Part shown: positions 5,374 to 32,918 of the stretch, in pieces | How positions within the stretch are numbered: position 1 is the stretch's first letter | Layout: every line of letters begins with the position of its first letter | IMG/VR virus record: IMGVR_UViG_2778261297_000006 | Location: 1-42,300 of that record | Origin: a virus | Lineage: Duplodnaviria > Heunggongvirae > Uroviricota > Caudoviricetes | DNA length: 42,300 nucleotides | Direction: 5' to 3' (one strand) | The notes under the pieces: generated by a model | Database searches by the model: none | What the model was told of the DNA's origin: nothing | What the model saw: only the letters and a program-made list of their open reading frames with translations | Position numbers and translations under genes: made by a program

Positions 5374-6107
5374 TGGGCGGCCTCCTGGCGGTCTATGCGT
5401 TCAATTTCAGCCAGAATAAGTGCGCCAGCTTTCACCAGGTCACGGCGTGGATTTGTCGGCTTCCACCATTCTGGTGTCCACGGCCAGCCAAATGGAATGC
5501 GGTTAAATGGATGGATGGCATTCAGTACGTAGCATGAGGATGCCCACAGTAACTGCGATTTGCTGTACTGGTCATCATGCTCAGGCGTCCATCCCTCAAC
5601 TGATTGATGGCGTTGACGCTCTGCAATTACTGACTGAACGGCATTGGATAGCGATTTCACACCCTGCGCACGCACTTCAGCCAGGAAAGCATCGGTGGCT
5701 GGGGTTTCTGGAATGGCGTCTGGAATAACCTCTGAGTAGACGCGTTCCATTGCCGACTCCCATCCGTAGTAACAAGCCGAATAGCCGTCGCGCTGGTAGC
5801 CGTGGTCTTCAACTCCACATCCCATGCCCTGGTCATGGTATTCAGGCTGATTGTCGGGATTAATGCAGTATTCAATGACCGACTTCATCCCCGCATTCTC
5901 CGCTGCCAGCGCAGTGCACTTGGCCTCAAGGTTATCAATCGTGATTCCAGCAGAACGACACTCCCGCAACGCCGTTTCCAGTTTTGATTCAAGTTCACCG
6001 AACTTACGGACAAGGTATTCAGCGTTTGTTTCGTTAACCTTTAAATCTCGTGGGATGCATTTACCTTTCAGAAAACCATCCATCTCAATTAGTGACATTT
6101 GTTTCAT
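5370..6107 (-). CDS. Hypothetical early-region protein (245 aa)
   Basis: Long ORF in the operon, start coupled to the upstream stop; no recognised domain. Confidence 0.6.
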
Positions 6108-6286
6108 TTTTTCCCACTCCGAAACATCGCATTCAGATATTTGTTTTGATTCACTGACGGAAAAGCATTTCTCTTAAGCAATTCCTCTCTCGATGGCATT
6201 GGCTTTACGCGCTGGCGAATAATCATTTCTGCCGGAAGAATGCCGGGATTGTATGCAAGTCCTCTCATGGTAAATTCCTCAGTCAT
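6104..6286 (-). CDS. Small hypothetical protein (about 60 aa); the track ORF 6104..6418 trimmed to an internal start
   Basis: The ATG at 6286 overlaps the stop of the upstream ORF (ATGACTGA); the longer N-terminal extension would overlap the neighbour out of frame. Confidence 0.4.
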
Positions 6287-6572
6287 TACTGATAGCGCCA
6301 TAGCGTGAGCGGTAATTACGCAGGCGCGGGTCAATTTCAGGGAAGTGGGTATATGTGGCTTTGCGGAATGGTCGGATTGATGTCTGGTAAATTCGCTCGC
6401 GTTCTTCTTTCTCTGCAAGCCATATACAGTGACGAAATTCCTTTTCCTCTTTCGTTTCCTGCGGTAGCGACATTATCCGATCGTAGTTTTTTCTGAATTT
6501 ATCCAGCACCTCCGATACGGAATTGCCGGAACAGCGGCGCGCGTCGTCCGCACCATACAGAGGCGCTGGCAT
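6279..6572 (-). CDS. Hypothetical protein (97 aa)
   Basis: ORF in the early-left operon directly downstream of the HNH gene. Confidence 0.5.
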
Positions 6573-6585
6573 GATTTTCTCCTGA

Positions 6586-7065
6586 TTAAATTGCGTGAAT
6601 AGCGTGACGAGGGAAGGGGAGAGTTACTGGTTCCTCGTCTGGGTAGATAGGTTTGTTATGTTTGTGCCACTCGACATGACATGACTTGCAGAGCCACATC
6701 ACATCGGTTGGTTTGCTGTAGTCGCAGTGGTGCGCCTGTGGTTTACATTCTGATCCGCAGCACTCACATTGTGGTGGTCGGATTAGCTTACCGTCGCGCA
6801 AAAAATTACCCACAATGATGTGGGCTTTTCTTTTCCATGGGTTGCTCTGAATGAACCGCTTTTTGGCTGCGTTACACCGTTCTCTTCCGCGTTCCGATGA
6901 TTGATATTCTCTCCTTGCTGATACTCGATGTGGCAATCCAGCGCGTTCTTTGTCGTATTCAGCCAGGCAAGCCCGGCAAGCGGCAGTTAATCCATCTCTG
7001 GATGCTCTTCTGATTTGAAAGTCCCTTTCTTCCTTCTGTTGATGGCATCTTGAGCAGACTTTCAT
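6586..7065 (-). CDS. HNH endonuclease (159 aa)
   Basis: Cys-rich zinc-binding motifs CSRCH, CECCG and CKSCH plus the HHCDY core typical of HNH nucleases; GGAG ribosome-binding site. Confidence 0.8.
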   Translation of the reverse strand: MKVCSRCHQQKEERDFQIRRASRDGLTAACRACLAEYDKERAGLPHRVSARREYQSSERGRERCNAAKKRFIQSNPWKRKAHIIVGNFLRDGKLIRPPQCECCGSECKPQAHHCDYSKPTDVMWLCKSCHVEWHKHNKPIYPDEEPVTLPFPRHAIHAI

Positions 7066-27329: not shown

Positions 27330-28241
27330 ATGGACCAAACCACCGACATTCAGGCTTCTGAAGAATTAACCCTGCCCGGCAATCATGCAGCGGCATCTGC
27401 TGATGGCTTAGTTGTCGATAATGCCAACGACAACGCAGGTCAGGAAGAAGGCTTCGAGATTGTCCTGAAAGACGATGAGAAACCAAAACAAGACCCGGCA
27501 ACTAATGCTGAATTTGCCCGTCGCCGCATCGAACGCAAACGCCAGCGTGAGCTTGAGCAGCAGATGGAAGCGGTTAAGCGTGGAGAGTTGCCGGAGCACC
27601 TGCGGGTGAACCCTGAGTTACCAAAACAACCAGACCCTAACGATTATCTTTCCGAAGATGCACTGGCTAAGTTCGACTATGACCAGAGCCGCGCACTGGC
27701 TGCCTTCCAGCAGGCAAACAGTGAATGGCAGATCAAGGCTATGGACGCACGAAGCCAGGCTGTCGCCGAGCAGGGTCGCAAAACTCAGGAGTTCACCCAG
27801 CAATCAGCGCAATACGTCGAGGCAGCCCGTAAGCACTACGACGCAGCGGAAAAGCTCAATATCCCTGACTATCAGGAGAAAGAGGACGTATTCATGCAAC
27901 TGGTGCCGCCAGCAGTCGGTGCCGACATCATGCGCCTCTTCCCGGAGAAATCCGCCGCTCTCATGTATCACCTTGGTGCTAATCCTGAGAAAACACGCCA
28001 GTTGATGGCGATGGACGGGCAATCCGCGCTGATTGAACTCACTCGACTGTCAGAACGTTTAACTCTCAAGCCTCGAGCCAAGCCTGTTTCAGAAGCCCCG
28101 TTACCTGATGAACCCATTCAGGGACACGCTGTTGCTGCAAATATCTCTGCGATTGAAAAGCAGATGGAAGCGGCAGCAAACAAAGGGGATGTAGAGACGT
28201 ACCGCAAGCTCAAGGCGCAACTGAATAAAGGAATTCGATAA
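27330..28241 (+). CDS. Scaffolding protein, P22 gp8 type (303 aa)
   Basis: 303 aa, acidic and helical, between portal and coat. Confidence 0.85.
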
Positions 28242-29536
28242 TGGCATTAAATGAAGGTCAACTGGTCACGTATGCTCTGGATGAAATCATCGAAACCGTC
28301 CAGAACCTGACGCCAATGGCGTCAAAAGTGACAAAATACACCCCTCCGGCAGAATCCATGCAGCGTTCAAGCAACACCGTGTGGATGCCTGTTGAGCAGG
28401 AAGCGCCAACCCAGACTGGCTGGGATTTAACTGGCAACGCAACCGGGATTCTGGAACTCTCCGTGAAATGCAACATGGGCGATCCGGATAACGATTTCTT
28501 CGAGCTTCGTGCAGATGACCTGCGTGATGAGCGTTCTTACCGTCGCCGCATCCAGGCATCCGCCAAAAAACTGGCGAATAACATTGAGTCAGCGATTGCC
28601 AAACAGGCAACTGAAATGGGCTCGCTTGTTGTTCACGATACCCGCGCAATTGGTCCATCTACTGGCCTGTCTGGCTGGGATTTTGTGTCTGATGCAGAGC
28701 GCCTGATGTTCTCCCGTGAGCTAAACCGCGATATGGGCATCAGTTACTTCCTGAACCCTGACGATTACCGCAAAGCAGGCCGCAACCTGGTAGATGGTGA
28801 CATCTTCGGGCGCGTTCCTGAAGAAGCGTATCGCAACGGTACTATTCAGCGTCAGATTGCTGGCTTTGATGAAATTCTTCGCTCACCGAAACTTCCGGCA
28901 GTTACCAAGTCAACCGCTACTGGTGTAACTGTGTCTGGTGCGCAGAAGTTTAAGCCGCAGGCATACACCCTTGATACCGATGGTAACAAAGAGAACGTCG
29001 ACAACCGTGTTGCAACGGTGACCGTATCCTCCACCACCGGATTTAAGCGCGGCGACAAAATCAGCTTCACTGGTGTGAAATTCCTGTCTCAGATGGCGAA
29101 GAACGTGCTGACTGATGATGCGACTTTCTCAATCACCCGTGTGATCGATGGTACTCACATCGAAATCACGCCGAAACCGATTGCACTGGATGACGCGTCA
29201 CTGACAAAAGAAGAGAAGGCTTACGCTAACGTAAACACCTCTCTTGCTGATACCACTCCGGTAAACGTTCTGAACGTGGCAACAACCACCGCTAACGTGT
29301 TCTGGGCTGATGACTCAATCCGACTGCTGTCTCAGCCTATCCCGGTAACCCATGAGCTGTTTGCTGGCATGAAAACGTCTTCCTTCAGCATTCCTGGTAT
29401 TGGTGTTAACGGCATCTTCGCAACGCAGGGTGATATCAACACTCTGTCTGGTAAGTGCCGTATTGCTGTGTGGTATTCAGCATGTGCTGTACGACCAGAG
29501 GCAATTGGTGTTGGTCTGCCTAACCAGACCGCGTGA
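28241..29536 (+). CDS. Major coat protein, P22 gp5 type (431 aa)
   Basis: Size and position; TAATG coupling to the scaffold gene; hairpin attenuator downstream. Confidence 0.9.
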
Positions 29537-29544
29537 TAACCAGA

Positions 29545-29566
29545 GGGAGCTTCGGCTCCCTTTTCT
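29545..29566 (+). terminator. Hairpin plus T-tract attenuator after the coat gene
   Basis: gggagc-ttcg-gctccc followed by ttttct, 9 nt after the coat stop. Confidence 0.5.
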
Positions 29567-29579
29567 ATTGGAGATACCA

Positions 29580-30173
29580 ATGAGCGTAATGATTTTTCAG
29601 GCTGGCGGAGATACCAAAATCTGGGGGCGCAAGCTGAAAACGAAAACCGTTGATCCTGATGATGTAGCTGTGCACTTAGCAAATGGCTGGTATAAGCACC
29701 CTGACGATGTTCCTGATGATCCTCTTGTTGGTGATCAAATTGGGAGTGTTGGCGGAGGTGAAACTTCCCCAGTTGATATGGGCGAAGTGTCCGACGGTTA
29801 TCACACTTTTAACGAGCTTTACGCTCACCGAGTGCGCCTCTTCTCATCGCTGATGCATGCTTACGCTGAGCTTTCGTGGTGGTCTCGCAAACACAGTGAC
29901 GGTGAAGAGTGGGATGGCTGGATCATTGCTGGTATCACCACTCCAGAAGGCGAAATCACTTATCACCTACCTGTTGAAGAAATCGAGTTCCTTCCTGAAG
30001 GTACTGAGCTTGAGTTCGGGAAAGAGTGGGATGGTCATGAAGCAAATGATGTTCTTGGACGACTCCTGAGTTTGCGTCCGGCTATTGCAGAGCCAGAGCC
30101 AGAAGAAAAACAGCGTAAAAAGCCTGGTCGAAAACCTAAGGCGGCAGCAGATGAACCTGACAACGAAGGGTGA
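29580..30173 (+). CDS. Hypothetical acidic protein (about 197 aa) between coat and the gp4 homolog
   Basis: ATG at 29580 with GGAG 6 nt upstream; Lys/Pro-rich basic tail; no corresponding gene in the P22 order as I recall it. Confidence 0.5.
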
Positions 30174-30651
30174 TTTAGTCCTTGCAGCATTACGTAAGCT
30201 CGGTGTTGCATCAAATGCCACGTTAACCGATGTCGAACCGCAGTCTATGGAAGACGGCGTCAACGACCTTGAAATGATGATGGCTGAATGGCTTGGCGGT
30301 GATGTGTCACCTGGTATCAACGTTGGCTACATTTTTGCTGATGCAGATGTCGCTCCGGATCCGGGCGATGAGCACGGTTTATCAAATAACGCTATCAATG
30401 CCGTCATTTTCAACCTTGCCTGCCGCATTGCTCCGGATTATGCGCTGGAATCGTCAGCAAAACTTATAACCACTGCCAGATACGGGAAAGAGCGACTCGT
30501 CAAACTGTCTGCAATGGACAGAGCAAAAGCCGCTAAATGTAAGTCCGGTTATCCAAACCGTATGCCTGTTGGTAGCGGTAACCAGTTGGCGAAGTGGAAC
30601 GGTTGGAATTACTTCCACCGGAAGGAACCTTGCGATAACGGGAGCGAATAA
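30148..30651 (+). CDS. Head-completion / tail accessory protein, P22 gp4 type (167 aa)
   Basis: [27 protein letters not shown] pattern, size and position; start at the internal ATG at 30148. Confidence 0.7.
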
Positions 30652-32070
30652 ATGCCGATTCAGCAACTTCCGCTTATGAAAGGTGTCGGCAAAGACTTTC
30701 GAAACGCTGACTATATCGACTATCTGCCAGTGAATATGCTGGCTACACCCAAAGAAATACTCAACAGCAGCGGATATCTTCGCTCATTCCCGGGCATTGC
30801 CAAACGTTCTGATGTGAATGGTGTATCGCGCGGTGTCGAGTACAACATGGCGCAGAATGCTGTTTATCGCGTGTGTGGTGGCAAGTTGTATAATGGCGAA
30901 AGCGAGGTCGGTGATGTTGCCGGAAGTGGTCGCGTATCAATGGCGCATGGGCGAACATCTCAGGCGGTAGGCGTTAATGGTCAACTGGTCGAGTATCGCT
31001 ATGATGGCACGGTTAAAACAGTCTCAAACTGGCCTACAGACAGCGGATTCACTCAGTATGAGTTAGGTTCGGTTCGCGACATTACGCGCTTACGTGGGCG
31101 TTATGCGTGGTCAAAAGACGGAACTGATTCATGGTTTATCACTGACCTTGAAGACGAATCGCACCCTGACCGATACAGTGCGCAATATCGCGCAGAATCG
31201 CAGCCTGACGGCATCATCGGCATAGGTACATGGCGAGACTTCATCGTCTGCTTTGGTTCATCGACGATTGAATATTTTTCCCTGACAGGTGCAACCACCG
31301 TTGGTGCCGCTTTGTATGTCGCACAGCCATCGCTGATGGTGCAGAAAGGTATTGCCGGGACTTACTGCAAAACGCCGTTTGCTGATTCGTATGCGTTCAT
31401 CAGCAATCCGGCAACTGGTGCGCCGTCTGTATACATCATTGGCTCCGGTCAGGTGTCACCAATCGCCAGCGCGAGCATTGAGAAAATTCTCCGCTCCTAC
31501 ACTGCTGATGAACTGGCTGATGGTGTGATGGAGTCTCTGCGATTTGATGCGCATGAGCTGCTGATTATCCATCTTCCGCGCCATGTTCTGGTGTACGACG
31601 CATCTTCAAGCGCCAATGGTCCGCAATGGTGTGTGCTGAAAACAGGCCTGTATGACGATGTGTACCGCGCTATCGACTTCATTTACGAAGGCAATCAGAT
31701 AACGTGCGGCGATAAGCTGGAATCGGTTACTGGCAAATTGCAGTTCGATATCAGCAGCCAGTATGGGCTTCAACAGGAACACCTGCTGTTTACTCCACTG
31801 TTCAAAGCGGATAACGCCAGAGTGTTCGACCTTGAGATTGAATCGTCAACTGGCGTTGCGCAGTATGCTGACCGCCTTTTTCTCTCTGCAACCACTGACG
31901 GCATCAATTACGGGCGTGAGCAGATGATTGAGCAGAATGAACCGTTCGTTTACGACAAACGCGTTTTGTGGAAGCGAGTAGGGCGCATCAGGAAAAATGT
32001 CGGCTTCAAATTGCGCGTTATCACGAAGTCACCTGTCACTCTGTCTGGCTGCCAGATAAGGATTGAGTAA
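30652..32070 (+). CDS. Tail accessory protein, P22 gp10 type (472 aa)
   Basis: Exact size match and position. Confidence 0.8.
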
Positions 32071-32918
32071 TGGCTGATTCGAATCTCAACACCCCTGTTA
32101 TTGTGCAGGCGACGCGGCTCGATACATCAATCCTTCCACGCAATATCTTCTCGCAGTCGTATCTGCTGTACGTTATCGCACAGGGTACTGATGTTGGTAA
32201 CGTGGCGAACAAGGCCAACGAGGCCGGACAGGGCGCTTATGACGCACAAGTCAGGAACGATGAGCAGGATGTGATTCTCGCTGACCATGAGCAGCGAATT
32301 TCTGCTGCGGAAGCAACGCTTGTTAATCATGAGGAGCGAATCAGCCAGGCAGAATCAACTCTTCAGGAACATGAAACACGAATAGCGCAGAATGAAAGCG
32401 ATATTGCGTCGCTTGATACCAGAGTTCAGTCGCTGGAATCGCAGGTTTCAGACCATGAAACGCGCATCGATGCTCTGGAGTATGCCACTACTCGAAAGAA
32501 GTCAGAGGTTGTTTACTCTGGCGTATCAGTAACCATCCCGACAGCGCCGACCAACCTTGTTAGCCTGCTGAAAACGCTCACGCCGTCATCCGGGACGTTG
32601 GCACCATTCTTCGACACTGTTAACAACAAGATGGTTGTGTTCAACGAGAACAAAACCTTGTTCTTCAAGCTGTCGATCGTCGGGACGTGGCCCAGCGGAA
32701 CCGCCAACAGGTCAATGCAGCTAACCTTTTCCGGCTCTGTTCCTGACACACTGGTAAGCAGTCGTAATGCGGCGACAACAACCGACAACATCCTGTTAGC
32801 TACGTTCTTCAGCGTGGATAAAGACGGCTTTCTTGCCACAAATGGCAGCACGTTAACCATTCAGTCTAATGGTGCGGCGTTTACTGCCACAACCATCAAA
32901 ATCATTGCGGAGCAGTGA
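32070..32918 (+). CDS. Tail needle, P22 gp26 type with C-terminal knob (282 aa)
   Basis: N-terminal heptad repeats ([37 protein letters not shown]) and an extra C-terminal globular domain, as in Sf6-type needles. Confidence 0.75.

Follow-up and report, generated by a model that had tools for sequence, protein, structure and literature searches.

The window, as we call the 42,300-nucleotide stretch of DNA analyzed here, carries a P22-like prophage of Escherichia coli. Comparison with the P22 record upholds what an earlier note on this DNA had said of its assembly module, namely that the order and sizes of the genes from the small terminase to gp16 match those of P22. A segment 99.6% identical to the window is present in a complete E. 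coli chromosome, inside a prophage adjoining intS and tRNA-Arg. The coat gene (P22-type gp5, 431 aa; 28241..29536 in the ORF list, plus strand) shares 98% DNA identity with the coat genes of the phages IME10, APC_JM3.2, and Bas106, and PGAP names its ortholog 'P22 phage major capsid protein family protein'. Downstream of it lies the gene that concerns us (29580..30173, plus strand; ATG at 29580, TGA at 30171-30173), which encodes a WDGH domain-containing protein of 197 aa and which we call the slot gene after its place between coat and gene 4. A GGAG Shine-Dalgarno sequence of its own (29570..29573, plus strand) can be read 6 nt before the ATG, and this start is backed by homologs that begin at the same methionine. 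The following gene, a gp4 homolog (head-tail adaptor, 166 aa; 30151..30651, plus strand), begins within the 3' end of the slot gene; alignment with the gp4 starts of P22 and L places its true start at ATG 30151, with an overlap of 23 nt in different frames. An overlap with the start of gene 4 is also found in P22 (17 nt), L (17 nt), and Sf6 (26 nt). The reading frame, its GGAG, and its overlap with gp4 are all as the earlier note had reported them. Farther along, the gp26 (tail-needle) homolog at window positions 32070-32918 encodes 282 aa; in length it equals Sf6 gene 9 (849 nt) and exceeds its P22 counterpart (702 nt, 233 aa). On account of this length, the window may pair coat and gp4 of the P22/IME10 type with a needle as long as that of Sf6.

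The hairpin with T-tract that had been noticed between the coat gene and the slot gene is indeed present (29545..29569, plus strand). It comprises the stem-loop GGGAGC-UUCG-GCUCCC at 29545-29560 and TTTTCTATT at 29561-29569. The fold of this region has an energy of -19.2 kcal/mol (z = -2.5), which 5 of 200 shuffled sequences equal. It has the form of an intrinsic terminator, that is, a GC-rich hairpin with a U-tract directly after it, with a stem of 6-9 bp, a UUCG loop, and UUUUCUAUU. A generic consensus terminator scan did not list the hairpin at 29545-29569, in our reading probably because extended pairing of the stem can use up part of the T run, so that too few T's remain behind it. Bas106 and APC_JM3.2 have exactly this stem-loop, with a T-tract that differs by one base, although a different cassette follows in those phages. 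Counterparts are annotated in P22 (stem_loop 6102-6119), Sf6 ('t coat'), and HK620 ('tGP5'), and one also in L; the annotators of P22, Sf6, and HK620 likewise took it as a putative terminator or stem-loop. We infer that the post-coat hairpin has putative terminator or attenuator activity.

The slot gene had been taken for an extra gene relative to P22, and this proves to be wrong. The coat/gene 4 slot is filled in every canonical P22-like phage that we checked (P22, L/ST64T, ST104, Sf6, and HK620). In P22 it holds orf69 (6135-6344), which lies between genes 5 and 4, after the annotated stem-loop, and overlaps gene 4; the other occupants are orf186 of L/ST64T, ORF54 of ST104, gene 6 of Sf6, and hkbT of HK620, all of them placed after annotated stem-loops, which for the last two are the 't coat' and 'tGP5' terminators. 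The window ORF has the same position between coat and gene 4, a stem-loop before it, and a 3' end that runs over the start of gene 4. Alignment finds an N-terminal module of ~45 aa and a basic tail common to all aligned slot products and the window ORF, with ~120 extra middle residues only in the window ORF and the L/ST104 type. Judged by position and alignment, the window ORF is a long, WDGH-bearing allele of the P22 orf69 family and the ortholog of L/ST64T orf186, and by the same comparisons it is a known accessory gene and not a new insertion.

The closest relative, L/ST64T orf186 (also ST104 ORF54 and SE1 orf56), shares the slot, the stem-loop before the gene, the overlap with gene 4, and the architecture of N-terminal module, WDGH domain, and basic tail, and its product is 62-63% identical to the window protein in amino acids. 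The two differ in the linker and (EP)n region, in the tail, which in the window is of the E. coli type of IME10 and Bas106, and in their hosts, since orf186 belongs to Salmonella Lederbergvirus phages whereas the window is an E. coli prophage. P22 orf69 and the genes for 76-88 aa in IME10, APC_JM3.2, and Bas106 are short forms (phrog_1175) that occupy the same slot and have a homologous N-terminus of ~45 aa and a basic tail, but the WDGH domain is wholly absent from them; in the E. coli short forms, the tail and the flanking DNA are identical to those of the window. More distant are Sf6 gene 6 and HK620 hkbT, which resemble the window gene in following an annotated terminator, in overlapping the gene 4 homolog, in being small, and in ending with a K-R-G-R-K basic patch, but which are only ~23% identical over the N-terminal module, lack WDGH, and belong to the Sf6-type coat lineage. 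In the record of phage L, orf186 is annotated with a note that refers to Gilcrease et al. 2005, and the genome paper of this phage describes it with 'detailed function unknown' (PMC8022706). A search of the accessible literature for WDGH in this sense, PF25311, or the function of orf186 found nothing relevant. As a refutation of its reading, the earlier note had named a conserved ortholog at this position in canonical P22-like phages with a known assembly role: the ortholog is there, and no assembly role is known for it.

The product of the slot gene (22.0 kDa) is acidic, with a pI of 4.7, a net charge of -19, and a Lys/Pro-rich basic patch near its C-terminus, which agrees with the earlier description. 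Four parts can be shown: an N-terminal module of ~45 aa, the WDGH domain, an (EP)2 linker, and an AT-hook-like basic tail. The N-terminal module (aa 1-48; 29580..29723, plus strand), a β-hairpin plus a helix, is common to the short forms (P22 orf69, Bas106_0006, and weakly Sf6 gp6). It matches phrog_1175 over aa 1-44 (E = 1.9e-14), PHROG 3769 matches the whole protein (E = 4e-101), and both families are annotated as 'unknown function'. A profile search with the module returned 379 proteins, of which the best 120 are all 48-88 aa long, and found it conserved across Enterobacteriaceae prophages; residues G9, G36, W37, and P41 are near-invariant despite strong divergence of the DNA.

The WDGH domain (Pfam PF25311; aa 68-165, 29781..30074, plus strand) scores 134.8 bits against a cut-off of 27 (E = 1.3e-39) over profile positions 1-97 of 97, with the W-D-G-H motif at aa 150-153. 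In alignments of 91 and of 150 homologs, D72, H75, Y81, H83, R84, S102, H105, D107, H129, W150, D151, G152, and H153 are invariant or near-invariant, a pattern that, by inference only, would fit a ligand-binding or catalytic site better than a structural scaffold. An AlphaFold2 model built with 91 homologs (mean pLDDT 85) predicts two confident domains: residues 1-45 form the β-hairpin and helix (pLDDT 85-96 over residues 1-40), and WDGH forms a compact α/β unit (pLDDT 86-98), with a disordered linker at residues 50-63 and a tail of low confidence. This tail (30102..30173, plus strand) recurs unchanged in the E. coli short forms, and its coding sequence covers the ribosome-binding site and start of gp4. 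Tails of orthologs consist of an acidic (EP)n run of varied length followed by K-K/R-x-G-R/P-K-P-K, and two orthologs (P0034 and P0044) have the canonical AT-hook core KKRGRPxK at this position; putative DNA binding by the tail can be proposed from these motifs. WDGH was the only Pfam match in the window protein, and no Tad2, Sequestin, or Lar domain was found; NCBIfam and PADLOC searches of the window protein gave no match, and Pfam searches of the short forms and the N-terminal module gave nothing credible. Sequence-profile searches against solved structures, with the whole protein and with the N-terminal module, gave nothing relevant. Structure searches with the model found no solved protein alike, capsid, decoration, and ejection proteins included, and a BFVD structure search retrieved other WDGH proteins only.

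The slot gene is already known as a gene in databases, where 328 public contigs carry the exact protein as 'hypothetical protein' and close copies are named 'WDGH domain-containing protein' by PGAP. That it might be a chance ORF or the remnant of a pseudogene is a thought raised by the nearest genome, E. coli 19KM1803 (NZ_CP151017.1), in which PGAP calls only a 90-nt partial pseudogene (L008:20081-20674). The 197-aa ORF is intact in that genome, with two amino acid substitutions, and we reject the pseudogene reading there. For the window gene, this intact copy, the number of contigs with the exact protein, the Pfam score far above its threshold, and the existence of thousands of homologs make a chance or decayed reading frame vanishingly improbable. 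Annotation of the region in several other genomes is inconsistent, with listings either as 'hypothetical protein' or as split WDGH calls. The 90%-identity cluster of the window protein also holds many 166-aa gp4 proteins, some of them named 'recombinase RmuC'; our guess is that some protein of chimeric or frameshifted sequence ties these to the cluster of slot proteins.

Among sequenced phages, those closest to the window are IME10, APC_JM3.2, Bas106, Louie, and Dewey; they are ~98% identical to it over coat and gp4, and in all of them the slot gene encodes 76-88 aa without WDGH. DNA alignment with these short-form E. coli phages delimits a mosaic cassette (~29575..30087, plus strand) made up of the N-terminal module and WDGH. 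At the left edge, the hairpin and GGAGA still belong to a near-identical stretch that reaches to ~29574 and contains two mismatches and one 1-nt indel; the sequences then diverge from ~29575 to 30087, and identity resumes from 30088. The right boundary coincides with a hexanucleotide repeat, (GAGCCA)2, that encodes (EP)2 (30090..30101, plus strand) and varies in copy number among genomes. Slot spans in E. coli genomes change in 6-nt steps, in a short series of 333-447 nt and a long series of 695-719 nt, and APC_JM3.2 carries an expanded hexamer repeat that is annotated as repeat_region. The short-form proteins range from 72 to 88 aa in steps of 2 aa. By these comparisons, (GAGCCA)n acts as a variable-number repeat and marks the right recombination boundary, and the alignment shows the N-terminal module and WDGH to be a recombination cassette between the conserved hairpin and ribosome-binding site on one side and (GAGCCA)n on the other. 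The N-terminal module of the window protein and its counterpart in the E. coli short forms are only ~33-40% identical, and this shows that the cassette was swapped as one unit. A recent foreign origin of the cassette was considered and rejected, since its GC content (0.49-0.50) equals that of the neighboring genes.

The long, WDGH-bearing form is present in 42 of 217 E. coli genomes that match the segment, so that ~80% of the related prophages lack WDGH. P22 and the plaque-forming isolates IME10, APC_JM3.2, and Bas106 also lack it, from which it follows that WDGH is dispensable for virion assembly. The suggestion that the inserted gene is cargo therefore holds for the cassette of N-terminal module and WDGH, which is exchanged between phages ~98% identical and whose WDGH domain is missing from most relatives; it does not hold for the gene as a whole.

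The conservation of the junction itself could be explained in another way, if the hairpin, the ribosome-binding site, translation, and a stop within the start region of gene 4 were what selection maintains. The ORF would then serve as a leader or coupling frame that sets the level of gp4 downstream of the post-coat attenuator, and the peptide, WDGH included, would be a largely neutral passenger. The overlap with the start of gene 4 is kept in the window, P22, L, and Sf6, the block encoding the 3' tail is 100% identical in long and short alleles whose bodies have been exchanged, and the length of the product is very variable (61 to ~211 aa, with slippage of the hexamer repeat), all of which speaks for such a leader. 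However, the N-terminal module is conserved as a protein while its DNA has diverged strongly, and has a confident predicted fold; the K/R-G-R-K basic patch persists even in the differently sequenced Sf6-type tails; and the invariant residues of WDGH are retained in the slot context. Together, these observations argue for selection on the slot protein itself, and we consider the passenger explanation unlikely.

Two further explanations would tie the protein to the particle. According to the first, it is virion-associated, as an internal, ejected, or decoration protein; the N-terminal module or the basic tail would direct it to procapsids or packaged DNA, and the next host would receive WDGH. 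The location of the gene in the head gene cluster and its probable late expression agree with this, the AT-hook-like tail could bind DNA, and a counter-defense protein made late would be most useful if injected. Against it, the structure searches gave no resemblance to solved capsid, decoration, or ejection proteins, and the WDGH genes of other phages lie mostly in nonstructural regions. Moreover, the well-studied virions of P22, Sf6, and L have, to our knowledge, a defined list of proteins from which the products of orf69, gene 6, and orf186 are absent; the extra virion protein of L is Dec, the product of a different gene. The window protein shows no similarity to a known decoration or ejection protein, and we found nothing in support of the decoration or internal role that had been suggested for it, and a place in the virion seems improbable to us. 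According to the second, the slot protein is a nonessential assembly helper, a chaperone or timing factor for the addition of gp4 to the portal or for coat maturation, and WDGH would be an extension that it can do without. In all the P22-like phages examined, the gene keeps its place between coat and the first gene for head completion, and the conservation of the N-terminal module across Enterobacteriaceae prophages would fit such a role. The Sf6/HK620 version, however, has only ~23% identity, and WDGH is widespread outside any head module; we also know of no essential gene between coat and gene 4 in classical P22 genetics. We regard a role in assembly with considerable doubt.

The nature of WDGH is better approached through the family at large. 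A word-indexed search returned 1384 homologs, and an exhaustive HMMER search found 4470 clusters at 50% identity, counted by their representatives. Of 150 such representatives, 43 are of 150 aa or less, roughly stand-alone domains, and 68 exceed 200 aa with varied extensions; the domain is paired with many different N- and C-terminal partners. WDGH genes are found among small early or accessory genes in Klebsiella phage SJM3 and Listeria phage P100, beside NADAR in Bacillus phage Nate, and beside dUTPase in a Staphylococcus phage; in a pneumococcal phage, a WDGH gene lies between the portal gene and the next head genes. To judge from these domain pairings and neighborhoods, WDGH is a mobile accessory domain of a large, phage-borne family.

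Some of the partners have roles in countering host defenses. In the same 150 representatives, Sequestin (PF21825) is found in six, Lar in three, and MazG and DUF551 in one each; Lar is a restriction alleviation protein. One 265-aa protein (P0101) combines Tad2-like, WDGH, and Sequestin domains, all above their Pfam cut-offs. Its gene lies at 6001-6798 on a Serratia prophage contig (Logan ERR3566460) with a P22-type portal, between the lysis genes and the terminase/portal genes. This locus shows that sponge-family domains, as assigned by Pfam matches, can be encoded in the late regions of P22-like prophages. Sequestin was itself recognized as a sponge for 3'cADPR because it occurs fused to Tad2 and Acb4 (Tal et al. 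2025, bioRxiv 10.1101/2025.07.12.664507), and by the same logic WDGH, being fused to anti-defense domains, is a candidate immune-manipulating domain. Like WDGH, Tad2 (PF11195) and Sequestin are small, largely restricted to phages and prophages, often stand-alone, and also found in fusions with WDGH.

Counter-defense, also named in the earlier note, is a plausible candidate role, but the lead from the fusions is weak, for several reasons. They make up ~7% of the representatives, and the WDGH-Sequestin pairs may go back to one ancestral fusion. The window protein lacks Tad2, Sequestin, and Lar, and by Pfam it is not a member of the sponge families PF11195, PF21825, or PF13876. Neither Tad2 nor Sequestin has any similarity to WDGH in sequence or fold. 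By the criteria of Tal et al. 2025, a sponge is a short homo-oligomer with positively charged pockets between protomers; known sponges have such basic pockets, whereas WDGH is acidic (net charge -14 here, with a family mean of -6.1), and the supplementary tables of that study contain no sequence with the WDGH motif. We thus entertain only as a tentative, rather doubtful proposal that WDGH is a counter-defense module that would bind or cleave an immune or other nucleotide signal and that is plugged as a cassette into a conserved gene of the late operon of P22-like phages. It is unusual for counter-defense proteins to be expressed late, except where the system that they oppose is itself triggered late or where they are packaged; the placement of WDGH right after coat might serve against defenses that are triggered by late structural proteins.

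Taken as a whole, the reading that we prefer, and to which we give about an even chance, is that the window carries the long allele of a small coat/gene 4 gene, in which WDGH is a dispensable accessory module that possibly acts on a host function. In such a model, the slot gene would be part of the late transcript, beyond a hairpin that probably reduces or stabilizes transcript levels after coat, and would be translated from its own GGAG. Its termination inside the start region of gene 4 probably couples the translation of gp4, as suggested by the overlap that P22, L, and Sf6 have kept. The product would be a cytoplasmic accessory protein with no part in the virion or in assembly. In the most speculative step, WDGH would act in the cytoplasm on a host function, with a defense pathway or a nucleotide-type ligand as the likeliest target, as hinted at by the fusions to Tad2-like, Sequestin, and Lar domains and by the invariant His, Asp, Tyr, and Trp residues. 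A point against this preferred model is that it leaves the conserved N-terminal module and tail without explanation.

For genome annotation, it follows that the coat/gene 4 junction of P22-like phages is not gene-free and holds a conserved small gene with a swappable middle. For WDGH, which comprises more than 4000 clusters at 50% identity, some fused to anti-defense domains, the practical value lies in a lead and not in a discovery. The domain is present in the tractable phages L and ST64T, and P22 is a natural comparator without it, so that its function could be approached quickly; were the counter-defense proposal true, the significance of the WDGH cassette would rise. Among the short-form genomes, two assemblies labeled 'DH5alpha' (~4.83 Mb; H109 and H113) carry a P22-like coat/gp4 junction, which is unexpected in a K-12 derivative and suggests mislabeling or an acquired prophage.
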